Assembly (NCBI GenBank): GCA_965649765.1 | Contig: OZ287754.1 | Coordinates: 35,712,001 to 35,776,000, forward strand | Origin: Bispira polyomma | Lineage: Eukaryota | DNA length: 64,000 nt | Reading direction: 5' to 3' | Part shown: positions 14,900-64,000 of the stretch, in pieces | Layout: each line of letters begins with the position of its first letter | How positions within the stretch are numbered: the first letter of the stretch is position 1 | Notes under the pieces: generated by a model | Told to the model about the DNA's origin: nothing | What the model saw: only the letters and a program-made list of their open reading frames with translations | Database searches by the model: none | Program-made: the position numbers and the translations under genes

Positions 14900-15790
14900 A
14901 GGACATATAGCACTATCCCCCCCTTAAGGGGGAGCAGAAGAGATTTGCTATTTCTTGGACACTAACTTGTTTACGTTTTGGTTTAATTTCACCTTTTTTG
15001 GGGTCAATAGAAAGGGTTGTGGAGGGCGGGATTTTTTTTTCACACACACATCCCCTGCAAAATTTCCCTGAACCTCTTTTGTTTTCAACTTTTTAGATTC
15101 ATTAAATGCCTCCAGCCAAGCAGTGTTCCAAAAAGACCTAGTTTTTATGCTTTCGGGGCTTTCTGGAGGCTTCTCCCGTTTTCCAGGCCCCTGCAATTGA
15201 TTTCCCTATGTGCATTAAATTTACTAGTGAGGCCAAAACACTTGGCACAACCATGTTTTAAAATCATTCCAGCAAAGGCATAGTCACCTGACTGGGTAAA
15301 AGTGCCTTTGTTGTAGGCAGTACAGGGTACAGTTTTACTTATTCCGGAATTTTTTTGTGGAAACAGTTGAAGTAGTTTCACAACTATTTTCTTTAATAGT
15401 ATGCTGTGTCAAGCGAGCTCTAATTTCATGAACAGATACCATGTCATGCCAATTAACTTTCCCCTTTTCCATTTCGAGTAATAGAACACAGTGGGTGCTT
15501 TTGGCAGTATATTATGACGTTTCCATGGCATCCCTCATTAATTCTACTCCGTATTGCATCATGTTATTTTTAACTACATTTTCTGGTTCCTCTAACATAC
15601 ATTGTAAATAGCCTTGATACCACATAAGTGGAATAAGTTCATCATAAGCTGGATATTTTCTACTAGAGTTTACATAACAATGTTCATGTGGCCCATTAAT
15701 ATGTTCTCTAATGGTATGCTCACCAGTAGTAATAAACCAAGTTTTGTTACCTTGCTTCTCTGGTGAGGAGGCTAGCCTGTTTTTATGTTG
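14900..15790 (-). mobile_element. DIRS-order (Ngaro-like) retrotransposon remnant a: gag C-terminal half and start of pol
   Basis: Manual translation gives KQGNK...YPAYDELIPLMWYQGYLQCMLEE...MRDAMETS*YTAKSTHCVLLLEMEKGKVNW and PCTAYNKGT...HGCAKC, homologous to gag of the 42.6-49.5 kb element. Confidence 0.8.
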
Positions 15791-18637: not shown

Positions 18638-18849
18638 GAAAACGCCCACACAGTCAGAGGTGCATGTTCCATGGCTCTGAATGTCGCACAATGGAATATT
18701 ATATCGATGTCACCCTAGAGCGACGGAAATCATGGAATGCGGGGGGGAATCCTGCAGACTCAATCTTGCCAACACTAGGTGGAGGTTGTGACGTAACCTA
18801 GAATCTGTAAGGGGAACCCATTCACTCTCCAGCTTATACTGAAAGAGTG

Positions 18850-19330
18850 GGCCATTATTTGAGCCTTGGGTTATGGCCAACAGATTCCTACTGCTAGATG
18901 GGACACTGAAATTTCAAGTGGTAACTACCTTCTGAGCCCGGGTCCTTCTAATTCTGTCTGTTTTCGGAGTTTCCCCCCAAGAAATATTGCCCTCCTCCAA
19001 TTTACAGAGGACAATATGTGCCCCCTCAGCAGTGTTCTATGAGAAGTCATGGCCCTCATCCACCAATTCAGATATATTTTTGAAACCTAAACCCATTTGG
19101 CCATAGAGAGGCCATAATAGGAAAGTATTGTTTTCAACTGTCCACCTATTTTCAGGCCATGACACTTGGCGCCTGTCTCATTGATGTGGGTGAGTTTACG
19201 TAGTCTTGTATCTACTGCTGCCTGAATATGGTGAGACTCCGTCAGTATCTGGACGGATGGTACCAGTACATCGTCAGGCATAGATTCCCACTCAGCTTGG
19301 TCTGGACTGGCTGCCATACTCACACTGATG
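18850..19330 (-). mobile_element. DIRS-order remnant b: internally deleted gag
   Basis: Translates in pieces as DDVLVPSVQILTESHHIQAAVDTRLRKL, RQVSWPEN, LSMAKWV and DEGHDFS*NTAEGAHIVLCKLEEGNISW. Confidence 0.8.
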
Positions 19331-21265: not shown

Positions 21266-24200
21266 TTAATTTATGATCTTGTCTATCCTGAGGGTTTCTT
21301 CGTCAATGTCAATAACAATGCCCATACATGTAACTCGTTTACTGGGAGGTACTAGTTTACTGGGGTTTATAGGAAGACCTAAATCTGGCAGTAATTGCTG
21401 TAAAGTATCAAAAGCTAAGGTAGCCTTATCTTTATGTTCTATGAGTATGAAGTCATCAATGTAATTTATAACTGTGTAACGTTTTTGTTTCATTATGAAG
21501 ATGATACAGTCATAGGTCATCATAAAAGCTGCAGTCCCATGAGGAAGTCCAAAAGTAAGACTTAAATTAAGGAAGCATTGCTTTTTCAGATATAACCGAG
21601 TTTCAAACAGTCATAAGGGTCTATTCTTAGGTTACGAAACATGTAAGCTATGTCCACTTTTGCTAAGGTCGTCTTAGGTCCTATGTCCATAATGAGAGAG
21701 GTTATTTAATCAATGGTGGGTAATTTTAAAGTGAAGTCAATTGTGTCGTACTTTGTTTTAACAGTGCAGTCGTTTACAGAGTTCCCTGCTGGGTGAGATA
21801 AATTCATATAAGACAGTGCTTGTCAATGTCTTTAGGTTAAAAGTTGAGAGCAAAGTATGTCGGGGTGAAGGTGGGAACAAGCTGGGCCCATTAAAGTGCC
21901 TCGTTTGAGTTCTGTGACAAAATATTTATCAACAGCTTCTGGGAAAAATCTATTGGTATTGGTTTTTAACATTTTGAACAGTTAATCTATCTCTATCATA
22001 AAGTAAAATGGGAAAGCCAAATTCAATGTATTGTAATATGATATTGTCCGGAAAGTCTGTCAAATATTTTTTCCAATTTTCGACATTGAGGTTACTCTTA
22101 AGAGGTATCCTGACTTGTTTATAATTAGAAACTCTAGAAGTCTTAACAATATCAGCAATTTCAATAAGTTTGTCATATGAATTTATGTGAACTTCTCGCT
22201 TTTCTGGGCCTACCAATTCAAAGTTATTCTGTCTGTGTGGTATAAAACCATAAGTTTTATCACTAGAAAAAGTAAAGGCCTCCTGTTTGACATTGTCAAT
22301 ACTAGTGTCTGATGATTCAAATGTCAAAATGTCATTAATCATGACGTCTTCATTATGCACTAATGTAGGTTTTGAATCATAGAGATTTCATTATGCACTA
22401 ATATAGGTTTTTGAATCTTAACATTGTCATTATGCACTAATATATATTCCAGGTTTGTGTCATTGGGTAAGGGTAAGGGAACCTGATGATTATTGTTTAA
22501 ATGGTTCTGGTGTTGAAAATTTTGTTTGCAGATCTTGGCAATGATATCTGTATAATAAAAGGTTTGTCCAATTTTTGTATGTGTATGTGCCACATTATGC
22601 TTTGTAATTTTTGACTGATTGGATTGAGTGTAGTTTAAGACTGTAGTACAACTGGTTTTCACATAGGATAATGACCACATATGAACCAGTGTATAGGGGT
22701 TTGATGTAAGTACCACATATTATGACAATAAGTCCATTTGTATACACCTGAGATACATGGATCATCATGACAAACAATATAACAATAAGTTAGACAATCA
22801 TGATTAAAGTTACTGATACTAACATAAATGTCTACTGTACAAGAAACAAATGATGTCTTGTGACCATTATTGTCACCCTGAAACTAATCCATATTTTCCA
22901 ATTTAACTGGCAATTCTTGCCAACATATGTCTTTGAAAGGGCTACTGTCAGGCAATGCTTGTGATGTCTTACTGGGATCACCATAGCTCAGTTGAGCAAA
23001 TGGCTCATTGAATTTACAACTCAAATTATTTATAAAATTATGCTTAGTACTGTCTTCCTTACAAATTTTTCCATTAATGTTACTGTTTAAATCACTACTT
23101 CCTGTAAGCACACAATGACTATTAACAACATCAAAATTGAACTTAAGCTGAGTAGCTGTGGTGTCTGTTAGCAGTCTGTATCCCTAGTGGGGTGCGTTCA
23201 CGGTCGCGTTTGGGCTTCCATGGATTTTGTTGTATTTTGCTCGGGATGCAGATTCATTTTCTTGTTAAGTTGAAAGCAATTTGCACAAATATGTCTAAAT
23301 ATAATATTGTTGCCTTCGTGATCTTTCTGATGTTGGCACACATTTTTTTGGTAATGTCTGCAAGGCATCTCATTATTGTTGGAAGACGAGGTCGAAAAAG
23401 AATTGCTTGAGGGTGTAGTAGTGGAAGTAGCATTTGATATGAGGGCCTGAGAATAAGAAAGTCTGTTCATTGTCCATTTGGTGTAATCGACCCAACTCAG
23501 ACGCCCCTCTTCAAAATCATGCATATTGCTAAGCATAGGCGCCACGGGCAATCTCCAAGGAGATGGTGGAGGCGTCCTTGAGGGTGTCTGCTTACTCAAA
23601 GAGCATGGCCCGTGAAATGGCAGACTTTTTAACTTCAAGTATATTTTGAATCTGCCCAGCAGCAAACTATGAGACTGATAACTTATCGAAGGAAACTCGT
23701 TTCTCGCTTACACCGGATAAGCAGGCCTCATTCGGCCAATGCTTCATGGGGTCAGATACACACACTTCGGAAGTATTATAACATCCTGATTTACGTTTGG
23801 TGGTCAGCTTACCTTGGAGAGTTTCATCTTTGGCCCAGGCTTCATATTGTGTTAGCCATTGAGAGACCTCATTCTGGATGAGCAACAACTGCTCCAGAAC
23901 TTCGGGAGTCGGTAGAATGGTGTCTTTGAAGGTACGTTGGGTTGCTTTGTGGTCATACTGGTAATGCAAACTAGTTGGTTGACGTGTTGAGAAATCTGCT
24001 GTGAGAGGTTGGGGCGCGAACGAGCTGGTGGTGTTTCCTCTATGGGTGTCATAAAGCCCTAGTATAGTGGGTAACTCTGTGTGAGAACCTCAAGGTGCGT
24101 TATGAATAAAAACACGAGTAGTCTCTGTCTTTTTGGATTTTAGGTCCCAACACATCTTCTTGTAGTTTAGAAACTGTAGTTAATAATGTCTCCATCATAG

Positions 24201-29601: not shown

Positions 29602-30272
29602 TCACCACTTTAATGTGTACTGACAGGAATGGCTCATCACTTTGATGTGTACTGACAAGAATGGCTCACCACTTTAATGTGTACTGACAGGAATGGCTCA
29701 CCACTTTAATGTGTACTGACAGGAATGGCTCACCACTTTAATGTGTACTGACAGGAATTGCTCACCACTTTAATGTGTACTGACAGGAATGGCTCATCAC
29801 TTTAATGTGTACTGACAGGTATGGCTCACCACTTTAATGTGTACTGACAGGAATTGCTCACCACTTTAATGTGTACTAACAGGAATGGCTCACCACTTTA
29901 ATGTGTACTGACAGGTATGGCTCACCACTTTAATGTGTACTGACAGGAATTGCTCACCACTTTAATGTGTACTGACAGGAATTGCTCACCACTTTAATGT
30001 GCACTGACAGGAATGGCTCACCACTTTACTGTGTACTGACAGGTATTGCTCACCACTTTAATGTGTACTGACAGGAATGGCTTGCCACTTTAATGTGTAC
30101 TGACAGGAATGGCTCACCACTTTACAGTGTGCTTGACAGGAATGACTCACCACTTTATTGTGTACTGACAGGAATTGCTCACCACTTTAATGTGTACTGA
30201 CAGGAATGACTCACCACTTTATTGTGTACTGACAGGAGTTGCTCACCACTTTAATGTGTACTGACAGGAATG
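29602..30272. repeat. 32-bp minisatellite (CTCACCACTTTAATGTGTACTGACAGGAATGG), about 21 copies
   Basis: Head-to-tail, near-identical units with no unique spacers. Confidence 0.97.
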
Positions 30273-30446
30273 ACATACGTTAAATAATTATATTTATTTG
30301 CAGATAAGGAAACAAAAACTATTATTCTTACCTGTAATGATACTTTTTTCCTAATACCACAACTATAAGTAATTTATTCTAACACATCGCATGTAACTTT
30401 TACAACTGGTTGTTTTATACATGTATGTTTTCTAACATTGAATTTA

Positions 30447-30864: not shown

Positions 30865-31100
30865 CTATCCCTTAAATATCATATCTTTGACCAGTTTCTG
30901 AATATCTCCCATGTTGGCGTTGCCGTTGCCCACAGAAAGGCGCATTCTGCTATTGCTGGGGCCCGGGATTGGGGGTTTGTGGAGGCGGCGTCTGTTGCTG
31001 GGGGCAAAGACTTCCCCGCCCCGCGAGGGTGGGCTCATGTCTTTGTCCTGTAGGGTGGTGAGGGCAAAGTCTAAGTTATCAAAGCCCAGGATACCAGGTG
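30865..31100 (-). CDS. Terminal coding exon of a putative secreted peptide precursor
   Basis: GC-rich island preceded by a strong acceptor TTTTTTCCTCTCTTTCAG (phase 1). It encodes (T)PGILGFDNLDFALTTLQDKDMSPPSRGGEVFAPSNRRRLHKPPIPGPSNSRMRLSVGNGNANMGDIQKLVKDMIFKG*. The phase matches the donor at 53305. Confidence 0.65.
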
Positions 31101-31392
31101 CTGAAAGAGAGGAAAAAAGACACAATAATTACATACAACAAGAATACCAAGATACCAGGTGCTGAAAGAGAGGAAAAAAGACAATAATTACATACAACAA
31201 GATTACCAAGATACCAGGATCTGAAAGAGTGGAAAAAAGACACAACAATTAGGCCCAACAAGAATACCAAGAAACCAGGATCTGAAAGAGTGGAAAAAAG
31301 ACACAATAATTAGACCCAACAAGAATACCAAGAAACCAGGATCTGAAAGAGAGGAAAAAATACACAATAATTACATACAACAAGAATACCTT
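31090..31392. repeat. 59-61-bp tandem repeat (5 copies), each containing the splice acceptor of the adjacent exon
   Basis: CTGAAAGAG(A/T)GGAAAAAA occurs at 31101, 31162, 31221, 31282 and 31343. Confidence 0.92.
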
Positions 31393-34300
31393 GATACTAA
31401 GAAATTATGAGAACTAGTTTTGTGCCACTTGGAATAATGTCAGCACCTTTGTTCAGGTCTTATTTTTTATTAGATGTAATGCCGGAAGTAGTGTAGAATT
31501 CTATTATAATAATGTAATAAGATTATGCATTTTAACGAGAGCACAGAACATAATTAATTGACCTGCTAAATGCAGCTATTAGTAGTCTCCCAAAAATTAC
31601 TTAAAAAGGGATCAATAGGTATCCACTAAGTATCTTTAATTATAACATGACATATAATGCAAACTGTAATATTATTCATAACTTTCGTCAATAATAAGGA
31701 ACTATTTTCTTCATTTGGTGTACTCCAATCTTCATGCGTTGTTTGTTTCTTTCTAAGTGCTGATGGTAGAAAAATGGCCTAATTCTTAAAAAATGTAATT
31801 TATCATACCTTGCAGAGATGTGTAGGTAGTTACACATGGAATAAGTGACAGGACTACTCTATTATCTTTGTACCGGGGTGTGCTAATAAAATAGAACTGT
31901 ATTTACAACTTCTAATATTATTTATGTGCTGAAACAAAAATGGTAAGATTAATGCCCCTTGCCTTTAGTTTTGATCTGTATAGTACTTCTGTAATTATAT
32001 ACTTAAAGTATAAAGTCTGGTGTTTTCAATATGAAAGGAAATGAAAAAAACAAAGAAACAGAAATAGCAGTGAAGGATTAACTAAAAACCACGACGCACA
32101 AAATAATAGGTCAAATTCCAAGATGGTAATTAATTTTATATTTCATTTATATAATCCCCGATTTTAAAAGCTCAAAACTTAAGAGATGTGTGTTCCACTT
32201 CTAGTTTAAAAATAGATAGGTTTGAGTACAAATTAATATTAAAATATATAGATACAACCCGACGTCATTTTACATACTCTATACAAATATGCTACTATCT
32301 GATGTGTATGTGGATAAATAACCATGTTGTTGTTTATAATAAATTCAATCATATGTATAGCTACAAAACTTGAAATATTTAGAATCTGCTAATCTAAATG
32401 TTTTAACAATTACACAGTCATCCCAAGTAGAAGGGTGTCATGTAGATATATAATCCTCTTTGCAGCAAAAACAACTTTTTTTCTGACAATTATTAAGCTG
32501 TTATTTTATCACACCTTGCCAAAAGTTTTCTGTTTTAGAAGCTTTTATTATTCCCCTAGTTGTTCCTTGTTTTTGATACTATATCCTTTATGCTGGCAAC
32601 ATCACTACGGACTTCAGAAGGGTGTGTTTGATAGTACGGGCGTGTATTAGAAGGTACGTAGAATCAGACATCAGGCCACTATGGTGTGCCTCAACATTTC
32701 ATGTGATATGAACTGCCAGTGAGAAACTCGATACTAAATATAAACTAAATGGACCACAATGAGAGGCCAGCTTATTACACATTTTGACTGAATAATTTCA
32801 TGTTGTAAAAATTATACAAAATATAATGGTAAAGTCTTTTTACTTCTTAGTGCTTTACACGCAAAAAGTTACGCATTGCCACATATTGGGGTTTAACTTT
32901 TAAGACATTTAATGTTTTAAGTTTCACGTTTAGAATGACTTTATATAATGCTTTGCAACTTTTCCAATAAAAAACGCTATCCCTTTGATAAGATGTTGAT
33001 CGGGGTTCTTAAAGAATCCTAGTCTAATTTCATTGCACAGATATTACTATGATTTGTAAGAAGTCGGTTCATTAACTTTACAATAGCCTCACTATTAATC
33101 TCACAAATTGAACCTGTCAGAGTCATTATTGCTGCATGTCATTTTATCTTTAGCTTACTCAATCAGATTGACAGATAGTGTGCGATGACACTCTCTATTG
33201 ATGTCAAACTGTGTATAAAACCAATACTTACTTTGTGACAGTCAGTCAGTTTCTTTGATGTGATAACCACACTGCCAGACAGTGGATTGCAAACAGTCAT
33301 TTGCATAAGCCAGCTCTTATCGCCTACCTAATTGTCTGTAAGTAAAAAGCCAGTGACTTTTGTCATAGTGATGTCATAACTCACTCCCACATCAAGTCAC
33401 TGCCTGCTGATTATTACTTCAATGGTTACTTGTACAAAAACTCTAGGCGTATCTATCGTTCTATGCAATACTACAATGAGTGAGTACATTGATGTAGGTG
33501 ATTCTTTTAATGGTATTTTGGTGATACCTACATTCTGTGACTTTGTGGTTACTCCCTACATAAGCACAGTCCCCAATCATCAGGCACCTAAAATTAAGGT
33601 GGCCGTGACCTTGCCTAATAAGCCTTGTTCAGTTCACTGGGGTTTTCACCTACTCTAGTGTCTATTCGTTTGTTTTTTTAAAGCAGAGGACAAAATCCAT
33701 TATTAATACGGAAAAATATTAAGAGATATATATCAAGCTTGTGCAAACTTGTTCTACAAAATTTGCTTGATAAGCAACCCCTTTCTAAGTTACACACAAT
33801 ATGCCATACCTTCATTTAACCTACGCTTCCATGCATCAGATATATGTCAGTCGACATCTGCCGATTCCGTTTATCTCAATAATTACAGTGTAATACTCCT
33901 GTCTAACTCGATCGTAGCCCCTGACCATTATGATTATGCAATCGGAGAATACTTGGATATGTTGAGTAGGTTGTCTTTGATATTCAGGCCACTCAGGGTC
34001 CTTTGGCGAGATGCAAGTAGGTGCTCATGGACCAATAAGTCATGTTAGGACAGTTTATTTTTCCATCCAACGACTTATTTTTTCAAATGGCCCCTCCCAG
34101 GACCCAAATCGCTAGAAAACACATCTATCCACATTCCAGCTTATCTTTCCATCCCTAACGATAGGTCGGGTTCGTACCAACTTATAGTCGCGCATCCCCA
34201 AATTATCAAGTCGTGTGCCAATAAAAGGTTGTTAGAAAGGATAACTCGGGCTCTCCAAAAGATAGGTCGGTAGAACCCCCTCCCCCCCCCGCCGATTAAA

Positions 34301-42200: not shown

Positions 42201-42623
42201 AAAGACAATTAACCCTTATTCTTAGTAACGTAAACACAAATTAGTAACGTAAACACAAAAAAAGGATTACGGGTAACCACGTTGTGTGTGCCGGAGCTTC
42301 TCAGAAACTACACAATTTTTTCTTTGTGGCCTTAAACTCGATTTATGGATAACATATTTACTTTTTTATGACTAGAAATAATAAAAAATGATATATATTT
42401 TAATTATATACTAATTTATATATTTTACGTATCATTTTAAGGTATCTTAAGACATACAATACACATATAGCAGTATGTAAAATTGGGTAACTAGAATGGG
42501 TAATATTTTCAAAGTACATGCTTCACAAACGTGACACAATTCATATACCAAGCAGGGATCAATACTGAAGTATTATACACGACTAGAAAAAGGAAAACTC
42601 AGCATTATTTTGAATGAATTCCT

Positions 42624-43017
42624 CAGTGCCCTATTTGACCTTGAAGTGATGATAACTAAATAAGAGAATAACCTTGGGATAATTAGTTTATTCTATGTTA
42701 ATCTACTTTATATACAGAACTGAAGACTAAGCCCACCGGGTTTAAGGTTGTCATAAGTGACAGCTTAAACTGAGATTAAGAAAGTTTAAGTTAAGGTTAC
42801 CCTAACGTGAGATTAAGTTTCCGAGTATAAGGTCATCTTAATTTAAGATGCCAAGTTTGAGTTTAAGGCCATCTTAACTTGAAGATGGTGTTTTAAGTTT
42901 AGGTTAACCTTAAATAGAGTTTTTATTTTATTTGAATTTTGAGTTTGTGATACAGGAGGGCTTAGCCTTGATAACATGAGTATATTATTTTATGTATATT
43001 TTCAAGTAAAACAACAC
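42624..43017 (-). repeat. Split direct repeat B2 (394 bp)
   Basis: Matches 44021-44413 with 3 substitutions and a 1-bp indel by eye. Confidence 0.96.
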
Positions 43018-43827
43018 ATTAATATAGTTAGAATAAAGCAGTAACATGAATAAAGTGTAAAAGAGTGTAAAGTAAAAAAAAAAATAAAAGCAACCCTGTT
43101 CTAGCTAAAAGACTAAAAAATAAACTAAAAGCACATCTAGTTTAGAGTCCCGTGAATCCTTATGTGATGTACCACTAACTTACTCAGCCTTACTCGCTAG
43201 CCTAATGCCAGCCCTTGTTACATACGCAGAGGTTGCAAATCGAATAAATCGAGTTACAATTTGTACATTAAGGTATTTGCTGCACTTGATCTTGTGAGTA
43301 GATGGATCAGTGAGGCTTGATTGCTGATAGACACAGAGCCTTTGTATGGACCATTGTTCCATGCAATCTGAAACTATACACTAACGGTTAGACGTGTTCA
43401 TTGTGTGAGGGCAGCCTGTGCCTTTACTTTTTGTACATATACATTTACAACATTCTTTGACATTTAAATCATGAAATACAATACTGAAAACATTAATGTG
43501 AAATACAATTTGTGAAGAGGTTATATCTTCTCCTGGCTGCAGCTATAAAAGAAAGAGGGTCCCATTAAGGGGGCTGGTGGTAAACCAGTCAAGGGTTGGA
43601 GACAGCAAGGAGGGACTCCTGAGGGACCCCAAGGAGGCACCGAGGTGAAAGACTGCAGTCGAGCTATGCTGCTGACAGGTCAAAGCCCCGCCCCGGCACC
43701 CCCCCGCCCCCCCCTGTACATGAGGGCGTGAAGTGGAAGAACAGGAGCCCCAACTTGCGCAGCTTGCTCCCGGACGACGCTATAGCTGAAAAACAGGCGT
43801 AAGTAGGGGATGAGGGTGGGAACAAAA

Positions 43828-44020
43828 TGTATATATTAAAAATGGCGTCCTGCCTTGTTGACTTTAAGCTTAATAATGAACCCCTTAGCTATATGGCGGG
43901 AATTCTTGCCTTAATTGGGTTAATTAGCACCAATCATTTCTGAGGTCACCAGGACAAGAATGGTTTTAATAAAAGGTCTTACTAGCACTGACCCTGCTAG
44001 CCCCTCCGGGCTACCTTACA
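43828..44020 (-). repeat. Split direct repeat A2 (193 bp)
   Basis: Identical by eye to 49302-49494. It abuts B1 and so reproduces the circle junction. Confidence 0.96.
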
Positions 44021-44413
44021 CAGTGCCCTATTTGACTTGAAGTGATGATAACTAAATAAGAGAATAGCCTTGGGATAATTAGTTTATTCTATGTTAATCT
44101 ACTTTATATACAGAACTGAAGACTAAGCCCACCGGGTTTAAGGTTGTCATAAGTGACAGCTTAAACTGAGATTAAGAAAGTTTAAGTTAAGGTTACCCTA
44201 ATGTGAGATTAAGTTTCCAAGTATAAGGTCATCTTAATTTAAGATGCCAAGTTTGAGTTTAAGGCCATCTTAACTTGAAGATGGTGTTTTAAGTTTAGGT
44301 TAACCTTAAATAGAGTTTTTATTTTATTTGAATTTTGAGTTTGTGATACAGGAGGGCTTAGCCTTGATAACATGAGTATATTATTTTATGTATATTTTCA
44401 AGTAAAACAACAC
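44021..44413 (-). repeat. Split direct repeat B1 (393 bp)
   Basis: Copy of 42624-43017. Confidence 0.96.
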
Positions 44414-44423
44414 CAAACCCAAC

Positions 44424-45413
44424 TTAGGAAGTAGGGAGAGAAAGCAAGTTTTGAAAAGCCAGGGCTACTTTGTCTGAGGCGTTATGATCTGTTGTTATGT
44501 ATTTCCAGACACACTCAGATGTCCAAGTGCCATGGCTTTGAATTTCTTGTAGAGGGACATGGTTATTGAAAGCCAGGGTGGCAGCTGATCGTCTGAAATC
44601 ATGAAAGGCAATTGGGGATTGATTTAAACTGAGTCTTGACAAATTTTGCTTTAGGTTATGTCTTATTTTTGAATCTGTGAGAGGCCCCCATCCATTTGCT
44701 GCCTTAAACTGAAACAGAGGTGAATTATTTGAGCCTGGACAAATGGCAAGAAGGTTTCTTATGGCTGCCACTGGGCACAAGACTGAGTTGTGTATGCGTG
44801 GAACTTTAAGAATTTTGATTGAATTTCTGTTTTGGAGAGTCTTGGACCACTTAATAATAAGTTGAAGCCCCGGGGGTGCAAATAACACATCAGCCCTGGC
44901 CAACTGTTCTAGCGGATTGTAGGTAGCCACCGTGTGTGGGACCAGGTTAGAAATCCTTAGAAAGGAAAAAAAAGGCTAGTAGATAGGCTGCCTTAAACAC
45001 CTGGCCCATGTACATTGAATCACAGGTTTGTACTATTTGAGTTAGCAGGGAGATGTCAATGACTTTATTGATTTTAGCTTTGAAAGGTCTTTGTAGAATC
45101 ATTGCTTTTTCAAAGTATTTTATACGTGGATCTGCAAATGGACTTGTGTCAATGCCATATAGGCTAAGCTTTGCTTTTATAGCGGACAAATAGTTGACAA
45201 TTGATGGCTGGGATACTTTACTGGCTAATAGAACCTGCAGAAATGAAAGAACAAATAAAACTGAAATCTGTGTCAAATCGACGCCTACAAATACTGTGTA
45301 AGCAATAAAAACCTTGAACATATTTTGGTAGGCCTGCTGAGTGGCAGGCCTGAAGGCTTGATGGGCTGTGTGAGCCGCTTGACCTGCTAGCCGACGCACC
45401 AAGGGGGGTAAAT
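44424..45413 (-). CDS. Tyrosine recombinase (YR) of element d; one frameshift in a homopolymer near 44970
   Basis: ORFs 44947-45402 and 44424-44930 join via FLRISNL (catalytic Arg). HDFRR (HxxR) and HGTWTSECVWKY (W...Y) are present. Confidence 0.92.
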
Positions 45414-45423
45414 CTGAAATAAA

Positions 45424-47867
45424 TTATATACTCCAGTCAATTGCCAACATTTGATCTGGGACCGTCACCCAGCATGGGTCTGTTACTAATTGCTGTAATA
45501 TATTTTCTGGGTGACTGACCTTGTGCCACCTAGATAACAAATCTGCTGTTACATTAAGTTTGCCTAAGATGTGGACTGGCCTGATATTAATGTCAGCTTT
45601 GGCTACTTCCATAAAAATGTTGCGTGCAATTGCTGCCAGGGTTAGATCTCTGGTTTTGCCTGAGTTAAGAATTGTTACTACCGCTTGGTTATCACAGTGA
45701 ATGACCAGTTTTTTGCCTTGCCATATATCTTGCCACACTCTTAGGGCTACTAATATATTCAGCATTTCTAGATGCACTATGGTCATATCTAAGTAATTGA
45801 GAGGAAGTTCCTTTGTGTACACTATGTTATTACATCTGCCACCCAGACCCGTTAAGCATGCGTCTAGTTCAATATGGTCAGTGACCGGGCTATGGTCGAA
45901 GAATGCTTTGCCATTGAATTTGCCTACAAATTTTGTGAACCAATTTAGATCTTGGAAAAAGAGGAACTCAAGCCTAATTTGTTTTGTGTCATGAGCGTTA
46001 CGCAAGACGTCGAGCATTCTATTTAGAAACACTCTGGCGACCCTTACGCACTTGGATATGTAGAGAAGCGAGCCCAGCAGTGATTGTAATTCTCTTTTGG
46101 AGCAATGCTTTTTATCTACCCAGGTTTCGCATATTTGAATAATTAGGCTTAATTTTGCAGGTGGAACTTCCTCTGTAAAGTTTTTTGCGTCAATAAGGAC
46201 TCCAAGACAAGTTACTCTGCTGGTCGGAGGGACGAGCTTTTTTGCACTATTCGCGAAACCTAGATCTTTGACCAGTTCCTGCAAAGTTTTATAGGCGTCA
46301 TGGACGTCAGGTGCGTTGCCATACCCAATGACGTCGTCGATATAGTTGACGACGTCATAGCCTCTGACGCGCATCATGAAACGCATTGCGTCACTGAGGC
46401 GCTGAAAAAGAGCACTTCCGTGCCTGTAGCTAAATGGCAGGCACGTATCTACGTAGTATTCGTTTAGTTTGAGACCTAGTAAGTCGTATTCTGCTGGGTC
46501 TAGCTTAATGTGGCGAAACGCACGACTTATGTCTAGCTTATAGATAAGGGCATTTCTGCCCAGTTTTATGATCTCGTTGGTGACATCGTCAATGGTGGGA
46601 AGTGTTAACAAAAATTTTGAGCCAAGGTATTGATTTGGATGTATAGCTGCGTTAACTGATTGACCCCGAGGAAAGCTTAAATCTATAATAACCCTTCTGT
46701 GAGGGGCGCCAGGTTTTTCCCTCGTCATAAACGGGGATATATGTAAATCCTTGATCGGGGGTTCTTTAAAAGGGCCTAATATGGCACCATGATTTTTCTC
46801 TTCAGTCAGGTAAGCTTTAACGTCATCTGTGAACTCACACGCCGAGAGGTGATTTTGATCTTTATGTGCTAATTTACAAGTCCTGTCAAAGTCAAGGGGA
46901 AAACCATACTGGATTAAAAACGGTAATTGGGTGTCCCAATAACCCTTTAGGAGTTCTTTCCAGCGCACGTGGTTAAGTTCCGACTCGACAGTGAATTGCT
47001 TGTTCATAAAATTGAATTTATTGCTGTCTTTTATTTCTTTGTGGAGCTGCAGAGCTGAAAATTTATGCTCGTTTCCTTGATCAGTTGGGGGGTTTTTTAA
47101 GGGGCCCAGAGGAATATAACCAAATTTGGCCCGATTTTGACTATTCCATTTTTGAAAAGTTTCATCAGTTTAGCCTTGGCTAGTACTTCCCTATGCCGAG
47201 GTTTTACCTGTAATTGAAGGTTGTATTTGTCGTCGTGTGTGTCAGCAGAATAAGTAATTATTTTGCCTTTGTGTAATGGGCTAGAAGTGACACGAGTGTC
47301 ACAATCAGGGATATCACACTCAATGACGGATAGAAGGGGGTCAAATCGGTTGCGGAGCTTGACTCCATTGTGTTGCTTGATTGGTATTTTACCACTAGAG
47401 GATTTGTCAACCTTTCCATCCTTAGTATTTGATTCTACTGTGGACCCAGCACACAATGCTGTTTTATTCTTGACACCTTTTTGGCTACACACACTTGTAG
47501 CTCTGAATGGGCTAGTAGAATCTGACCGTACACATTTATTTTTATTTACACTATACACACTATTAGGGTGACTGCTGGGGAGAGTTTTGACCTTCGGAAA
47601 GCTTTTGTTTTTATTTGTTTTGACTTGAAATTGGCTGTTTGCTTTAATGACATTTAGGGGTTTTTGCTGCACAACTTGTGCATAGGATTTATGTACAAAC
47701 CTGGCCCAGTCTGCCCTCCAGTTGTCACTCCTACCATTATATACATGAGAATTATGAATGTTTCTTACAGAGGTGAAACGTGTTCTGCTCTGATAGTCAC
47801 TACATTTGTCAGTCTTATTGTAATTCTTGAGCGGCACTGCAGTTTTGCAGTGCCTTACTCGTTTTTT
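45424..47867 (-). CDS. Pol (reverse transcriptase + RNase H) of element d; one frameshift near 47170
   Basis: A 527-aa open core has RVIIDLS, KLDISRAF, YIDD, DACLTGLGG, HLEML, CDNQ and ADLLSR. An upstream extension (FGYIPL) runs back to the gag-end slippery site. Confidence 0.95.
47833..47867 (-). promoter_or_regulatory. Predicted -1 programmed ribosomal frameshift signal (gag to pol)
   Basis: A_AAA_AAC at 47867-47861, a 6-nt spacer, then a perfect 9-bp stem GGCACTGCA-AAAC-TGCAGTGCC. Confidence 0.8.
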
Positions 47868-48911
47868 GCATTGTTTTTCCTTCTGCAATCTTTTTCCGAA
47901 TGTGGGAGATTTTTGCCTAGAGCAGAGCACGTTGCACAAACATGGGAACAGTCTACCAGCCGTCTCATGGTCCCCTTTTTGAGGACATGTACCTTTCTGA
48001 AAGTAAATACACGGCATACCTCTTTTACTGTTACTTTTGTTTTGACCCTGGGAATGTGAAACAGCATGCAAATTTGATCCCCTTTGAGCATGAGCTCGTC
48101 GAATTCTGTCAATTTTTTGGGTTTCGAGCCAATTCACCTTGCCCTCCTCCATCTTACACAGGAGGACAGCATGGCTGCCTTTGGCAGCATTCTAACCAAA
48201 GTCGTGGCAATCTTCCATTACCTCAGACATGTATTCAAGCATTGCGTTTCTTACCTGGAGGTTAGTTTCTTCCCTTATTATGGTACTAAACCCAGATACC
48301 CATTGCGCCATAGACAAATTGTCATATGACATACGAGTTTTAGTTTGTCCGCCCAAAATAAAGTTTTGTGGCCACGGTACTTGTTGCCTGACTCAAACAG
48401 TCTCTGTTCCCCCCCTTTGTGACTTGAAATTACCTGTTTGGTTCATCTGTTGTAAGTCCTTCAGTCTGGTGTCCACAGCTCTCTGCAGTTGATCCGATTG
48501 TCTGAGGGTCTGGAGTGACGGTACCATGAGGTCATCTAACTCTGTGGTCCAGCGGGTCTGCTGCCTGCCATAATCTGTCGTGTGCAAGGGGTTAACTGGC
48601 TGAGGTAGGCTCGTTGACTGAGCACTTGAGAGTGAATGTTCGTTTATCACAGGTACAGCTGATGCTCTCTGAACTGCATTAACTTTAGACTGTCCATCAG
48701 TTTCCACCCTCTTTTCAACTACCGACATCCTGCTTCCTAGATCTTTAAGCTCTTGGAGTATTCTCAAGTTTACCTCCGCTGCCGACAGAGCAGAGTCACT
48801 AGCATTATCTTCAGTACTAGTGTCGACGTCCTGCCAGGGACAGTTCGCGTTAATAGGTCTAGTATGCTTAGTGCCACATGCCGAACAGTTGTATAGTTTA
48901 CGGGGTGCCAT
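47855..48911 (-). CDS. Gag-like ORF1 of element d; in-frame TGA (48393-48395), TAG (48192-48194) and a frameshift near 47945
   Basis: N-terminal CSACGTKH..C, central WPQN...YDNLSMAQWVSGF...MEEGKVNW, and a C-terminal Cys/His knuckle CIYFQKGTC..H..HVCATC..H..C. Homologous pieces occur in five other copies. Confidence 0.85.
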
Positions 48912-49301
48912 CCCTCGTGCAGCTCATATAGAGTTACCTTATTACAGTTTCTAGTCCAAAATTCCGTGGGTTATAGTCTTTCCACTGTCAATGTTTATAT
49001 CTAATTTCACTGAAAGATAATATACACAATCGTGCTTTGATAATTGCGGATATTTGGGCTTGTGGTTTTTCTAATATAATTTAGAAGACGATTAAATATT
49101 AATGAACTGAGAACGTCCCTTAACAAGTTGCCCCCACAATAAAGCCAGAGCAATATTCGCATTTATCAAAGCATTTGATTCCTAGAAACACTCCAGTAGG
49201 ATGGCTGCGTCTTCAGTTGGTCATCTAGTACATTCCTTGCTGATTCGGCTTCAGGTTATTACATTAAAGTCCAAAAAAAAAAAACACACAGTAAAACAAA
49301 G

Positions 49302-49494
49302 TGTATATATTAAAAATGGCGTCCTGCCTTGTTGACTTTAAGCTTAATAATGAACCCCTTAGCTATATGGCGGGAATTCTTGCCTTAATTGGGTTAATTA
49401 GCACCAATCATTTCTGAGGTCACCAGGACAAGAATGGTTTTAATAAAAGGTCTTACTAGCACTGACCCTGCTAGCCCCTCCGGGCTACCTTACA
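49302..49494 (-). promoter_or_regulatory. Split direct repeat A1, probable element promoter
   Basis: Identical to A2. It contains ATTGG (CCAAT box), TTCCCGCC (E2F-like) and CGCCATTTT (YY1-like) motifs upstream of gag. Confidence 0.75.
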
Positions 49495-50711
49495 TTTACA
49501 ATAAAAGCACAAAAACGGAGATAGAAAAAGTTAAAAGTTTCACCCTTCTGAACAGAATGATGTTTTGTATTCTTAATTTTTATAAAATAAGGAAACATAT
49601 GAAAAAATGTAAATCATTCAAAATAATATATATGTTTTTTAAAGTTGTTTAGCGTATATATTGTGTTCATATATGCTAGATCAATACTCGTATTGTGTCA
49701 CAATAGAAAGAGCTCTCTGCAAAAAATGTTTATAAATATGACGTTCCCCCATAGATTTCAAAATGTGTGACGTCACAATACAAGAATCGTTTTATAGGTG
49801 GTTATATAGTTTTTTAGAAAAGTATTATAGTTTTAAATTGTCTGGGTATATGAAAATAGGTAAAAACCTTGCTAAAGAATCGTTTTATGGATGCCATTGT
49901 GTGTATATGAGAGAAAATGACTAGCGCAAATGCAGTATGATTTATCGGCGACGTATTTGTGTGTTTACGTTACTAAAGCCTTAGGCCACTTTAAAATGAT
50001 TTATTTTTAGCTGTTTTATAATGCAACTATCAGGGAACTATTATGTTGTGCCATGACAAGGCTTCAGAGGAGTAGGTCAGTGGCTGGACACTGGCTAACT
50101 TGATGAATACTAGCTAACAACAATATGCAGTTTGGTGTTCTTTTTTCATATAAGTAATTATTTCATTATCATTTGTACTTATTTCTAGAAACATAAGCAG
50201 AAATTTATCCAACTAAAAATACAGTAACATGAGCCTGAGCAATAAATCCAGGGAAAACGTAAAATATTAACAAATAAAAAGAGCATAGTTTTCTCCAATT
50301 TTCGGGCCATTCTCAGACTACAAAATTTGTATTTTAAAGTTAAAAGTAAATGAAGCCAGGTCATTGTGTAATTGTAAAATCCGGAGTAGAGTCCTACTCT
50401 AACCACTGTGTACAGCCTTTACATCTATAAAGGGAGGTAGTCCTATTAAAGCATTACTTGAAAACACGCAGAGCCTTTGATGTTTTTTCCACGTAAGCTC
50501 CTAGAACAAAGAAATTCTGGTATGTGAGCTCTAGGTATGTAGCATGTTAACCATTCCACAAAGCCCTTGCATATTAGAGTCCTATGACGTCACCGTAACT
50601 TAGATAGAGGCCTTGGTGCACTGCGTAGTGTAGAGACATTTCTAAGTTAAAGTTTGAGAGGATTCATTTGAATCAAAGACTTATCCTTACAATAAATTGG
50701 TCTTAGAATGG

Positions 50712-51085
50712 TTTGGTTTATTCAGTCTGGGTTATTCAGTCTGTGGTTTAGTCAGTCTTATGGTTTAGTGAGTCTATGGTTTATTGAGTATGTGGATTAT
50801 TAAGTCTTTGGATTATTGATTCTTTGGTTTATTGAGTCTTTGGATTATTGAGTCTTTGGTTTATTTAGTCTTTGGTTTATTGGGTCTATGGTTTATTGAG
50901 TCTGTGGTTTTTTGAGCCTTTGGTTTATTGAGTCTTTGCTTTATTGAGTCTGTGGTTTAGTCAGTTTGTGGTTTATTTAGTCTGGGTTTATTCAGTCTGG
51001 AGTTTATTTAGTCTGGGGTTTATTCTGTCTGGGTTTATTCAGTCTGGAGTTTATTTAGTCTGGGGTTTATTCAGTCTGAGTTTAT
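50712..51085. repeat. Degenerate 15-17-bp tandem repeat (TTTATTGAGTCTTTGG-like)
   Basis: More than 20 imperfect units are visible. Confidence 0.9.
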
Positions 51086-57529: not shown

Positions 57530-60500
57530 AATGTCAAAGAAAGTGTTCAATTGTAGTGTGTGTTCTGATAAACACCGTCCTGTGGAAAAGAGATGTCGCT
57601 ATGCGTTGGGGCACAGTGTCACCGATAATGTAACCTCTGTTGGACATGCTATTACCGCTGAAGTGCCTGGTACTGTGTTTGGTACTGGTACGGGTGCAGG
57701 TTACGGAGGCAGCGCTGTGCTCACCCAGCGCCAATAAGGAATGTATGACTTCTAGTCAAACAAGTACTATTGTTGCTGGTAATGTGTCAGAGCATGTGGC
57801 TGAGGCAGTAATTCCTTCCCTAGATTACCTAAAAACAAACGATAATCTGCAATCTCAAGTAGACCAACCACTGCTTCAGTTGCAAGATTTGAATGAATGG
57901 GCAGAAGGTAAATTTAAATCACAATGGGGGAGGGGGCGTTGAAGCCTCTATCAAAAGGTCAGTAGATTGGCCCCAAAACTTTGTATTGTCAGGTGCTAAG
58001 AAAACTAGACCCACATACGACGAGTTGTCACTGGTTCAATTTATTTCTGATTTTATCCATTGTTTACAAGAACAAAAAGGTCCAGCTACTCGAGAAGCCA
58101 TGCTCGAGTACATGGCAAATTTAATGAACGATGCCCACGATTTCTCAATCGACTCCCACGATTTCTCGATCGACTGAACTGGACTGATGTGGAAAAAATT
58201 GACCGTATACGGAGGGCCCATGCCCAACGTCATATCACATCTAGTGCAAGTGGGTCTAGTTCTGCTAAGTCCACCAGTAGTGCTAAGGGTAAAATTCAGG
58301 CCAAATCCCAAGGTGTCAATTGCCGTTTTTCCAAGAAGGCACATGTAAATTTAAGGCTAGCCATCGTACTTCAGGTCAATTATTTAGGCACAACTGTGAA
58401 ACTTGTGATGGGGGCCATCAAACCAAACTATGTACCAAAAAGGGGTTAAAAAACTAAGGGGTAAAATTAAAGAGGTTTCATCTAGGACTGTTTACAATAC
58501 AGCCTTTTCTAATTTTAAATTGTTTGAAAATGTATGTTTTAACCATGTGTTGAAAAGTATGAAAAGATACTACATGGACATGGTGAAATTGGGAAACAGT
58601 GTTCCTAATGATTTCACACAAAATAAAACTGCACACGATATTGGCAGGAGAAATGAAAGGCGGGTTCTTTCAGGTGAAATTAAAAACAAATTAGAGAGAT
58701 AAACAAGTCTTCATGTCTTGCCAGTTTGCTTGACAGAAAGTTCAACACCAGCCGAGCTAAAACACGTCTGTCAAAATCAGTAAACAATGTGTTTCATTTA
58801 ATGAAAGCAAACAAGAACAATGGGGGTTGTGAAGCCACCAAAATTACATTTAACCAACAAGTCAATAAAGTGTCACGTTCTGTGAACACCAAAGGTAACA
58901 ATGAAAGTGGTGCTAACCCTTCTTTAGTAAGATGGGCCCCCTCCTCCATTTCTAAATTAACACCAATTAGCTCGGGTGGTGTCAACAATGAATGGGATTT
59001 TCAATTGCCCCTTCACAATAGGTATGCATTATTGGGTGAGCCAAACGTGGAGGGCGCAAATGTTAATGACCCAGTGTGGAAGGTCAGGCCTCTAACAAGA
59101 TCTTGCCTGTCCATAATAAAAAGGTAACCACTCAAGTGAATAGTTGTGATGACAAACATGTCCTGGAGGTATACAAAAGGGGCGATAAAAGACAACGTCT
59201 TAATAATGCTAAGCACGTTGACACCCACAAGATGTGGTAAATTCGTATTCATCCCTCTTGCTTCGTGGGGTTCTCGTGGTAAATGTGTTTGTCTTACATA
59301 AGCGCCTTAAGGCTTCTGTAACGTAAACACACAAATACGTTGTCGATAAATCATATTGCATTTACGAATTGTAACTTTAGCACATATACCTACAACAGCA
59401 GCCATCAAATGGTTCTTTAATGACCGTTTTACATATTTTTATATGCAAATACTATTTAGAACTTCATTATTTTATTGCATAATTATTAAAAAAAGCCGTA
59501 TAACGATACTTGTATTGTGACGTCACACAATTTGAAATTTATGGTGGAACGTCATATTTGTAAACAAGTCTCGCAGAGAGCCCCTTCTGTTGTGACACAA
59601 TACAAGTATTGATCCAGCATATATGAAGATATTATATAGACTACACAACTTTAAAAAAGGTGTATATTGTTTTGAACGAATTACATTTTTAAATATGTCT
59701 CCTTATGTTATATAAACGTAGAATACAAAGTATCTTGCTGTTTAGAAGAGTGTAATTTTAATGTTTTTCTATTTATCCCCATTTTTTTGTGATTTTATTA
59801 AAAAACGAATTTATTCACAATATTGCTAATGTTTTCCTTTTTCTAGTCATGTATAATATTTCAGCATTGATAGCTTCTTGGTATGTGTATTGTTTCACGT
59901 TTGTGAAGGGTGTACTAGATCGAATATTCATGTTTTTCTTACAATTTTACACCTTCTTATACATAGTATTTGTTGCTGATAAATTGTTAAAATCAATGTT
60001 AAAATTTATAAAATTCGGCACGAATTGTTATTTAATCTGTCCACTAAAATTATCACAACTCATAAAGCAAAAATCGTATTTGAAAATGAACTTTAAGGCC
60101 TTTATAACAATGTAGTGTATGTTTCTAGACAGTGATTCCTTTACAACGTGGTTTAGCGGCGATCGTTTTTTGTGTTTACGTCACTAAAGCCTTAAGCGGG
60201 ATGGGCGCCCAAACTATAAAGGGCTACAGATAGCAGTGATTAGACAACTAAAGGCCCCTGTGTGGGAAAAGTATTTGACAGGGTATTTGGACTGGGAACT
60301 CCCTCTACTGATAGAATTTGGTTTCCCTCTGGATTGTTGTGAAGTACATGTCTTCCAATCTGACCTTGAAAACCATTCTTCTGCTACTCAGTTTCCTGAA
60401 CATGTAAGCCATTATCTAAAGGAAGAATGCCAACTTGGGGCTATGTATGGGCCGTTTAATATTCCCTCTATTGACAGTATACACACTTCACCGTTCATGA

Positions 60501-62050
60501 CACGGGACAAGTCAAGCTCGGTTAACTGACAGGTGATTATTGATTTGAGTTGGCCTCATGGCCATTCGGTTAATGCGGCTGTATGTCCTAATACCTACTT
60601 AGACAAGGAATTCATCCTCACGTATCCGTCCATTGATACTATTACTGAACAAGTAGTTGCTGTAGGCAGGGGTTCACTGATCTTTAAGGCCGATATAAGT
60701 CGCACTTTCCGGCACGTGACCATAGATCCTCGTGACATCGACCTTCTGGGCTTGTATTGGGATGTATATTATATAGAGCGGTCACTGCCGTTTGGCTACA
60801 AACAGGGATCTGCGATTTTTCAGCGAATATCGGATGGCATGAGATACATAATGCAAGATGAAGGTCACCAGATCACGAATTACATCGACAATCTCTTCTG
60901 CTGTTCAGTTCCCTTAAAAATATACAAAACTTATGACAGGTTGCAAGTCCTCTTAACCGAACTAGGTCTTACATTGAGCCACAAAAAACTGGTTCCCCCT
61001 GTGACACAGGTTACTTGTCTAGGTATTGTGATAGACACTGTTGAATTTACCACTTCTATACCAGAGGATAAGCTACAAAACATTCAAGACATGTGTTAGA
61101 ATTGGGTCGGTAAAAAGTACTGTACTAAGAGGGAACTCCAGTGCTTGCTGGGGTCCTTGCTTTATGTGTCTAAATGTGTAAAATATTCAAGGTTCTTTCT
61201 CAATAGAATGCTCCATCTCCTCAGAAGCAATCAGACAAGTAAATCAATAAAAATCACTACAAGTTCTACAGAAACTCTAACTGGTTTAGAGCTTTTCTGA
61301 AAAAAAATAATGGGGTTTCCTTCTTTTAACACAAACCCATCACAGCCATGATAGAGCTTGATGCATGCTTGACTGGTATGGGTGGCATCTATGGAGCTCA
61401 AATGTACACCTTGCCCACCTGTTGCAATGCAAGATTTGAATATTGCTTCCCTAGAGATGCTCAACATTCTAGTTGCTTTAAGGTTGTGGGGGACTCAATG
61501 GAAGGGTCATAGAATCCTTATCCAGTGCGATAACCAAACAGTGGTTAGTGTACTCACCCATGGCAGAATACGAGATAGCACTTTGGCTTTGTATTCCAGA
61601 AATATTTTGTATCCAACAGTCCTCTTCTTTTAGATGAAAGTATATAAGCTGTGCATATATTGTGTTCTATATAAATATTGCTGTTACAATTTAAACCAAA
61701 TTACATCAGTTGCAATGTCTTCCTTCTCGTTCTTTGTTTTCCAGAGGGAAATCCGGTCCAACAGTCACTCTACATAAATGCCACGGAAAAACTGCACCTG
61801 GCTTTCTGTCGCTCTAGAACTAGATCCTACAATGCTATGTACAGATTATACCAGGCGAATGCTGCTTTTATGGATCAACCTACAAATCAGGTGACTGTAG
61901 TCAACCTCCATGCCTATTTAGAATTGTTACATTTTAATGCAGTTAAACCCGCACAGATGGCCAACTACTTTTCTGTTATCAAAGCTAAGTTTATTGTCCA
62001 CAATGTACCAATTCATGCCTTCAGTGACCCACGTATAGCTTACTAACAAA
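57530..62050 (+). mobile_element. DIRS-order copy e: degraded gag, pol (RT/RNase H) and YR N-terminus, interrupted by a Kolobok-like MITE
   Basis: Motifs FNCSVCSDKH, WPQNFVL, IDRIRRAHAQR, IIDLSWP, NYIDN, LEMLNIL, CDNQ and YR-like ANYFSVIKAKF..FSDPRI. Confidence 0.92.
59311..60191. mobile_element. Non-autonomous Kolobok-like TIR element, copy 2 (881 bp, TTAA TSD)
   Basis: TTAA lies at 59307-59310 and 60192-60195. The TIRs are GGCTTCTGTAACGTAAACACA and TGTGTTTACGTCACTAAAGCC. Removing the element restores the pol frame LHKRLKRDGRPNYKGLQI. Confidence 0.88.
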
Positions 62051-62089
62051 AAAACAGTACAAATGGCTGCCCCCTCCAGGTGAAACAGG

Positions 62090-62720
62090 AAGCTGAACAC
62101 AGAAAGGTAATTATTGACATGGCCACATGGACAATTAGTTAATTCCGCAATTAAAAAGATACATACCTGGTACCACATTCAATTTAACTCTTCCAACAGT
62201 GGATGCAATGACCAAAAACATCATCAAATTAGACATTATAAAAAGGAGCCCTGCTATATACGTTAGATATAAGTTACATGTTCCGTCACGTGAAGATAGA
62301 CCCAGTCGAGTTACTAGGACCTAAGTTAAATAATACATATATATGCCTAAGCAATGCGGTGGGCTTTATCATGACATCACATGGACATGATGTCATCAAT
62401 TGTATTGATGATGTCATTGGCTTCGGCCCTATCGCCACCATATATGAATCATTCAATATTCTACAAGATGTGTTCAAAGTGTTGGTTTCATGTTAAGCAG
62501 AAATAAAGCAGTAGAATCAAGTACAAAGGTTGTATGCTTGGGCGTACTTATCAATACAGAAGACTATACTATCCCTATTGCAAAACCAGGCTACTTGAGA
62601 ATATTTGGAACACATGGACTAGTATACAAAGAAGCCTACCTATTGGCATTTTTCTACCTTTTGCACCAGCTAGCAAGGTCTGACATGTTCTTTTCCAAAC
62701 CTGCTTTAGTTTATGAGTAA
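62090..62720 (+). mobile_element. DIRS-order remnant g: deletion-riddled RT and YR pieces
   Basis: Pieces RKVIID, FRHVKIDP, DVINCIDDVIGFG, VVCLGVLIN, YKEAYLLAFF and QLARSDMFF. Confidence 0.8.
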
Positions 62721-63206
62721 CTCAAACTCCTAATGTGGCCTTGCTTTTGTAATTATCTATGTTTTTATACAATCTGTTCATAATGTAGAATGTACAATTT
62801 CCCACCTGAATTAATTAGAATCTCACGTAATGAATAGAAATTGAGAGGACATAACACCATTTTAACTTTCAGTATATTATTCTCTGGTCAGATTTTATTT
62901 TATAGAACGATTTATGAGCTTTTATTCTGATTTACAACTGGGCTATATATATATACACATATGTAATTGTGCACGTTGAGGATTGCTACAAAAAAAGCAT
63001 TCTAACTATTGGTGGAACCTGTTGTTGTGTTATTGACAACTTGCTTTGATATATGCAAATTCTGCTTTTTTGTTTGAGCCAGATATAATGATGATATCTA
63101 ATCTATCTTATTACAGCAAGATTTTGTCTCAAAGTAATTAAAAAATTTATGACCTCATTAGAATCCGCATATACCAAAGCACGGTGTGTGATTTCTATTT
63201 TCTAGA

Positions 63207-64000
63207 ATGCCACGTAGAAACTATTCAGCATGTGGTGAAAGCCATACAAAACGTGATGAAAGTGAATTTTTTTACCATGAGGATGCTACGGATGATACCT
63301 CTAAAACGGATACTAGTGACATTTTAAGTGCTGCAGTAAATTTATGTATTTTACAAGAACTGAAACAATTAGGTGAACGTATGTCAATAATGGAAGAGCG
63401 AGTTGAACTTTCTGAACAGCAGACTGTAGCTCCCTCCGCTATGGAAATTCCTGTTAAAGTATCCACTTTTGGGATCATTGCAACCACCAGCAGCACTGAT
63501 GATATCTTGGTCCCCTCATTGAGCACCTTGAAGATGTCGCAACAACTACTGCATGCAGTCAACTCCAGATTAAAGGAATTGGTAGACATGAATAAATCAA
63601 GTAACCACAAATCTCAGAGAGGAGGTCCTGATACTGTATGAGTCAATTGACAAGTCACTTGGCCACAAAACCATATTTAATTACTAATAACTATATTATT
63701 CTAAAACTCGTATGTCTAATGATAGTCTTTCCATGGCGCAATGGGTGTCTGGGTTTGGTGCTATAACCATAGGTAGGAGTAATGTTGAAGTTAAAAATTG
63801 TATGCCTGATTATATCCAATATCTAATGGAGGACAGCAATGATTTTTCATAGAAAGCGGCAAAAGGCAGTCATGCAGTCTTGCTATGCAAGATGGAGGAG
63901 GATAAGGTCTCATGGCATGAAATCCCTAAGAATGATCACATACGTAGTACACATGCCTAGAACGTATCAATCAGCAACCACGGGTCGCACTCCTCCCATA
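63207..64000 (+). mobile_element. DIRS-order copy f: gag, runs off the window end
   Basis: Translates as MPRRNYSACG..LSAAVNLCILQELK..DDILVPSL..KSQRGG..WPQN..AQWVSGF..DFS*KAAKGSHAVLLCKMEE. Confidence 0.9.

Follow-up and report, generated by a model that had tools for sequence, protein, structure and literature searches.

A probable -1 frameshift signal between gag and pol of Ngaro-type retrotransposons in Bispira polyomma, with predicted readthrough and splicing in related copies

Introduction

How are the polymerase and the recombinase of a tyrosine recombinase (YR) retrotransposon made, when their reading frames overlap others or have no start codon? The expression of such frames has so far been guessed at. 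Poulter and Butler (2015), as quoted in the portion of PMC13003380 available to us, hold that the YR ORF is probably reached by ribosomal frameshifting. The question is raised by a locus of Bispira polyomma (assembly GCA_965649765.1, contig OZ287754.1, positions 35,712,001 to 35,776,000 of the forward strand). This whole stretch of 64,000 nucleotides is called the window here, and coordinates are those of the window unless stated otherwise. On its minus strand, gag of a YR retrotransposon ends in a slippery heptamer followed by a hairpin, which the preliminary description of this DNA took for a -1 frameshift cassette linking gag to pol, and to which it added a splice for the recombinase. We examine these proposals in the window copy, in its relatives throughout the genome, and in Gag homologues from elsewhere.

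The Host Element

The element that carries the junction is a decayed copy, whose parts are as follows.

49295..49494, minus strand: split direct repeat A1, 99.5% identical to A2 in self-comparison
47855..48911, minus strand: gag, with zinc knuckles at its end; interrupted by two stops (48395, 48194) and, near 47950, by a break of the frame, open in sister copies
[quoted passage not shown]
44424..45413, minus strand: tyrosine recombinase (YR) ORF, with no initial Met; broken near 44965 in the window copy
44021..44413, minus strand: split direct repeat B1, 99% identical to B2 in self-comparison
43821..44020, minus strand: split direct repeat A2, from self-comparison
42624..43017, minus strand: split direct repeat B2, from self-comparison

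By the published definition used here for classing (PMC4157794, in the part of that paper available to us), the host fits the Ngaro type of the order DIRS. It shares with Ngaro elements the split direct repeats in the arrangement A1-B1-A2-B2, with the inner repeats after YR, the order gag, RT/RH, YR, and the absence of a methyltransferase. RT is recognized above the Pfam cut-off (RVT_1, E 1.4e-8). The match to RT_RNaseH is weak, as are those to Phage_integrase and SAM-like in the sister copy L118, the RH and YR scores lying a little below the curated cut-offs. For Gag, Pfam gives no match. No methyltransferase was found after RNase H at E 0.01 in Pfam, pol ending soon after RH; no hydrolase ORF was seen in L118, and no DDE integrase was found in the element. 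The PAT-like and DIRS1-like types are not matched: the methyltransferase domain is absent, and so are the inverted terminal repeats by which DIRS1 elements are recognized.

In the simple A1-B1-A2-B2 scheme the repeats are adjacent, whereas here A2 and B2 are separated by ~800 bp (43018-43820), with a G-rich stretch near 43715-43685. The flanks of the element, 49500-49991 on one side and 42513-42621 on the other, match 59300-59799 and 59807-59916, respectively, in inverted orientation and at 78-85%. Since both flanks match two adjacent stretches near 59.3-59.9 kb, the element was probably inserted into an older repeat.

The Gag-Pol Junction

The cassette at the end of gag has three parts.

47861..47867, minus strand: A_AAA_AAC, the slippery heptamer, standing in gag phase; retained by 25 of 30 loci of the family and by 109 of 162 copies genome-wide
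47855..47860, minus strand: spacer of 6 nt, made up of the last gag codon GAG and the gag stop TAA (47857-47855)
47833..47854, minus strand: 9-bp stem with a 4-nt loop, the predicted frameshift stimulator (z -5.7; pair counts from 17 sequences)

The heptamer stands in the phase of the zinc-knuckle end of gag, and the -1 frame there translates as KKRVRHCKTAVPLK. The two arms of the stem (47854-47846 and 47841-47833) are exact complements of 9 bp each, and the 41 nt 3' of the heptamer fold with -21 kcal/mol, a stability that 0 of 200 shuffles equal. A -1 signal is expected to have an X_XXY_YYZ heptamer in zero-frame phase, a stable 3' structure 5-9 nt away, and a downstream ORF in -1 that is open from the site and has no start of its own. 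The first two are found in the window copy, where the structure is 6 nt away, and the third in unbroken sisters, the window copy itself being broken. The heptamer, its phase, the 6-nt distance and the perfect 9-bp hairpin had thus been described exactly (47867-47833). The accompanying claim that the -1 frame leads openly into pol does not hold for the window copy, whose -1 frame terminates at 47097, with the break near 47170; it does hold in sisters.

Because the window copy is decayed in gag, pol and YR, the open -1 frame was examined in sister copies, a sample of 30 family loci from a search of this genome. In nine of them this frame stays open from the gag end as far as RT, over 477-556 codons. 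Loss of the heptamer from intact copies had been named beforehand as one observation that would speak against a frameshift, and the reverse is found, all nine open loci having kept it. In L118, gag, a pol of 844 codons, and YR are all open. The first Met comes 284-382 codons past the heptamer in the seven copies checked, with conserved pre-RT sequence lying before it, and in L007 there are 25 ATGs upstream; an independent start of pol is therefore unlikely in the focal family.

Two other copies in the window bear on the same question.

58448..58457, plus strand: copy e, A_AAA_AAC (58448-58454) and then the gag stop; the hairpin is missing in this copy
15178..15184, minus strand: copy a, G_GAA_AAC in gag phase; a long downstream stem is present in relatives

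The AAAAAAC TAA reported for copy e is in place, but no hairpin follows it in this copy (z 0.3); in its relatives the stem is present, with swapped pairs. GGAAAAC of copy a is indeed in phase at the gag end (15184-15178), 37 nt before the gag stop, and relatives with G_GAA_AAC have a -1 frame that stays open over 423-727 codons, together with a long stem. Through their relatives, then, the -1 reading is supported for copies a and e as well. In L120 and L263, which belong to G_GAA_AAC families, the arms of the long stem are ~50 nt apart and enclose the gag stop. Copy f (L116), whose gag end lies beyond the window, has a decayed gag end without the heptamer.

Conservation of the Junction

Of 221 loci from this genome, 173 had a readable gag end and 48 were dropped, leaving 162 distinct sequences that form 45 clusters at 80% identity. 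A_AAA_AAC is in phase in 109 of the 162 copies and in 35 of the 45 clusters, and is absent from ten clusters; being related and sampled by similarity to the queries, the clusters are not independent trials, here or in the counts that follow. Among clusters whose Gag ends in K-N, 33 of 35 use exactly A_AAA_AAC, as against 6.6% expected from gag codon use. K-N pairs internal to Gag take this form in 3 of 51 cases. For asparagine these gags use AAC more rarely than its synonym (145 vs 264), yet AAC is nearly fixed at the site; for lysine AAA is the commoner codon (429 vs 208).

Strong folding (z < -2) of the 45 nt past the site is seen in 28 of the 35 cluster representatives vs 8 of 140 control windows, and the median fold energies are -16.7 and -5.4 kcal/mol, respectively; a strong stem is absent in seven representatives. 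The first base pair lies 3-9 nt after the heptamer, mostly at 6, and unlike stems occupy the same position. In the 17 sequences of the short-stem type, 92.8% of the cells are paired and three pairs change on both sides. However, covariation alone is modest, since five of the nine pairs are invariant and 27 of 500 shuffles also reach three two-sided changes. Since the stem is at the same time coding sequence of the -1 frame, some of its conservation may be protein-driven. In L219, and in L159 with its relatives (cluster F4), the gag tail has a further heptamer in phase, 12-18 nt upstream of the main site. L276 and L277, which form a long-branch family, have A_AAA_AAC with a weak and distant predicted structure, and their gag ends in two TAA codons.

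Gag homologues were also sought outside this genome, and 120 of 159 were examined, all from ENA assemblies and with 37-60% identity. A terminal knuckle is present in 89 of the 120 homologues listed, and 83 of these 89 end in K-N followed by 0-11 residues, against a background of 1.5%; among the matches listed, 62 of the 83 have the ending K-N-x-stop. Where the frame runs on, several homologues read G-T-A or M-Q-C, as the arms of the hairpin would. Two homologues were compared with this genome, and the top matches among those listed have 52-56% identity; for this reason both probably come from other species. Two metagenome scans gave no DNA context for the outside homologues, and the evidence from outside this genome accordingly consists of protein ends only. 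In two runs there are contigs of other families whose likeness is confined to 47833-47867, with divergence to either side.

Taken together, frame layout, codon-level conservation, and the conserved downstream stem strongly support -1 frameshifting for the focal family and its clade. We consider it very probable that the cassette is a real and well-conserved -1 frameshift signal of the textbook type, which would be likely to yield RT as a Gag-Pol fusion.

Alternative Explanations of the Junction

Pol might instead be made as a separate protein, through leaky scanning, reinitiation past the gag stop, or a non-AUG or internal start, with the heptamer and hairpin serving some other function such as packaging. 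The hairpin lies directly past the gag stop, a possible place for reinitiation or for a packaging element, and the linker of many other families carries Met codons. However, the positions of these codons are not shared between families, and the focal family is Met-free for a distance that extends beyond the conserved pre-RT sequence. A separate pol would also leave unexplained the synonymous fixation of the site as A_AAA_AAC and the placement of pol exactly in -1 wherever the heptamer occurs. We judge this explanation improbable.

Still less probable is slippage of the polymerase on the six-A run, which would add a base to some transcripts and so fuse gag to pol without any ribosomal shift. 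One added base would give the same frame change, but the final C and the codon phase of the site are conserved, and the G_GAA_AAC families have the same -1 layout with only four A. Also, the distance from heptamer to stem is one that suits a ribosome. Finally, it is hardly credible that protein constraint (Gag K-N-E, Pol H-C-x-x-A-V) together with AT-rich codon use gave rise to the motif as a side effect: the five invariant stem pairs and the preference for AAA agree with it, but the near fixation of the rarer AAC, the few internal K-N pairs of the same form, and the common position of unlike stems are already at odds with it.

In the -1 frameshift that we favor, the stem would make a ribosome pause while tRNA-Lys and tRNA-Asn occupy AAA-AAC. 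Most ribosomes would read GAG and then the stop, giving Gag of ~350 aa, while a minority would slip by -1 and go on through the linker, RT, and RNase H, giving Gag-Pol of ~1160 aa with K-N followed by R-V-R-H-C at the junction.

In such features as heptamer class, phase, 6-nt spacer, 3' stem, and a pol in -1, the signal is like the gag-pol signals of retroviruses and Ty3/gypsy elements. It is unlike them in its host, a YR retrotransposon in which no DDE integrase was found, in having a short simple hairpin as the stimulator, and in having the gag stop inside the spacer. In the available part of the review PMC5009743, A_AAA_AAC is counted among the shiftiest eukaryotic heptamers, and pol is in -1 in 28 of 51 animal LTR retroelements; the first 300,000 of its 449,034 characters contain neither "Ngaro" nor "tyrosine recombinase". 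A full-text search found no paper on a slippery site, readthrough, or YR splice in elements of the order DIRS. Goodwin and Poulter (2004) and Poulter and Butler (2015), both outside the reach of that search, may already propose a frameshift between gag and pol, and the novelty of a gag-pol signal in Ngaro elements is provisional to that extent.

Predicted Splicing to the Recombinase

The frame of the YR ORF relative to pol could be measured in 57 of 65 long copies: it is 0 in 11, +1 in 13, and +2 in 33. Since all three relations occur, passage from pol to YR by frameshift or readthrough is disfavored. Candidate splice sites are found instead.

48428..48437, minus strand: predicted donor in gag, phase 1; the intron would begin at 48433
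45411..45430, minus strand: predicted acceptor just past the pol stop, phase 1; the intron would end at 45414 (3020 nt)

G|GTA in phase 1 occurs at the same place, before a K-S-x-R motif, in 48 of 49 open gags, and the residue after Gly at the donor varies among them (K, N, T, I, or S). At the other end, 50 of the 57 copies have their first pyrimidine-rich YAG past the pol stop in phase 1, and five of the remaining seven show a phase-1 site close by. The product predicted for the window copy has 159 Gag residues fused to YR. These conserved sites support a spliced message for a half-Gag-YR protein.

The preliminary description had one transcript yielding Gag, Gag-Pol, and Gag-YR. Its splice is supported, the phase-matched sites being conserved; the scheme has to be amended in that two mRNAs from one pre-mRNA would be needed, and only the first ~159 Gag residues would be included in the recombinase fusion. 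The arrangement also differs from Ngaro elements as described by Poulter and Butler (2015), in so far as the available part of PMC13003380 quotes them, in that the YR frame varies relative to pol and candidate splice sites of matching phase are conserved. A junction of gag to the acceptor was seen in 0 of 30 genomic loci at the YR start of the family, an absence that is neutral, as spliced genomic copies need not exist. Among the matches listed for contigs of two runs of unspecified kind, none has a joint at the predicted sites, which counts neither for nor against the splice.

Probable Stop-Codon Readthrough in Sister Clades

A third copy in the window had been assigned to the frameshift class on the basis of CCCAAAC.

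23184..23186, minus strand: copy c, gag TAG, readthrough candidate; pol is in the same frame in the copy c family

The heptamer is present (23214-23208), but the -1 frame closes and pol is in the gag frame, which contradicts the assignment. Among 45 loci of the copy c family, a sample in which four places are included twice, the -1 frame closes 13-17 codons past the gag stop in all 31 readable loci, which end in CAA-TAG, and the zero frame runs for 499-610 codons into RT in three. Twenty further loci related to copy c gave 18 readable ones, all of which end in CAA plus a stop (17 TAG, 1 TAA). In these the -1 frame is closed within 29 codons without exception, and eight have a zero frame that stays open over 560-880 codons. 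CCCAAAC is rejected as a -1 site on these grounds; most of the 18 related loci have no such heptamer. In L119 and L121, at about 4450-4720 of the oriented loci, the pol linker of the UAG family contains a 39-nt tandem repeat that keeps the frame.

A similar layout is seen with UGA. Among 20 relatives of copy a, 16 were readable, and 11 of these have a UGA-C end past which the -1 frame closes in 10 codons or fewer; in two the zero frame runs into RT. Past the junction, an R-x-F-W-N-like motif is shared by the G_GAA_AAC families, which have it in the -1 frame, and the UGA families, which have it in the zero frame. Both sister clades therefore have the layout of readthrough, namely, pol in frame behind one conserved stop with the other frames closed. 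They have no shared strong 3' structure in single-sequence folds, which do not model pseudoknots. Readthrough of the stop codon is the likely mode of reaching pol in the UAG and UGA clades, judging from these layouts.

In gammaretroviruses (MuLV) gag and pol are joined by UAG readthrough, and UGA-C contexts are known to be leaky. The two sister clades resemble such systems in having an in-frame UAG or UGA-C between gag and pol, and differ from them in the missing shared 3' structure of the single-sequence folds and in that both modes, readthrough and frameshifting, would occur within one element group of one genome. The available part of PMC2194720 describes UGA readthrough between gag and pol in Candida Tca2.

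The relation between the modes was examined in an RT tree of 36 copies, 13 of 49 being left out (outgroup, near-copies, or mode unknown); the tree is unrooted and comes from quick searches, and the modes were labeled before the first such tree was made. It requires that the mode, -1 or readthrough, changed at least twice. Families with G_GAA_AAC form a group with those having UGA (SH-aLRT 98), and a topology that holds all -1 rows together is rejected (p-AU 0.012) in a test chosen after the tree had been seen. The trial outgroup fell on a very long branch; it was an RT-like frame beside a Ngaro copy (L032:199-849, oriented), which by its motifs we take to be DIRS1-like and which served this purpose only. 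Another RT-like frame lies beside a Ngaro copy at L223:7025-8827 (oriented).

Discussion

The scheme that would unite these observations starts from one RNA. Gag would be the default product and Gag-Pol the product of recoding, while a second, spliced mRNA, from which pol is removed at conserved sites, would join the first ~159 Gag codons to the recombinase. Two sister clades would reach pol through UAG or UGA instead. Recoding would then have switched at least two times among -1 (with A_AAA_AAC or G_GAA_AAC), UAG, and UGA within one genome, with the splice remaining fixed, and for these elements the published idea of access to YR by frameshifting would be mistaken. We hold this scheme as a whole to be probable, with less assurance than the -1 signal itself, going by patterns in genomic DNA.

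The -1 mechanism is a textbook one, and what is added here is the switching of modes and the splice. Exact candidate sites are provided: a frameshift cassette of 35 nt, two readthrough contexts, and one splice. Two further features of the genome bear on the evolution of recoding signals: unlike stems that form a natural series downstream of one heptamer, and related elements in which readthrough would have taken the place of frameshifting.

The window is rich in other repeats. At least five further decayed pieces of YR retrotransposons, of different families, lie at 15050-15870, 18630-19300, 21300-24030, 57900-62600, and 63200-64000. Tandem arrays are found at 29602-30274, 31086-31397, 50712-51085, and 9307-9498, with units of ~64, 60, 20, and 22 bp, respectively, as estimated from self-BLAST offsets.
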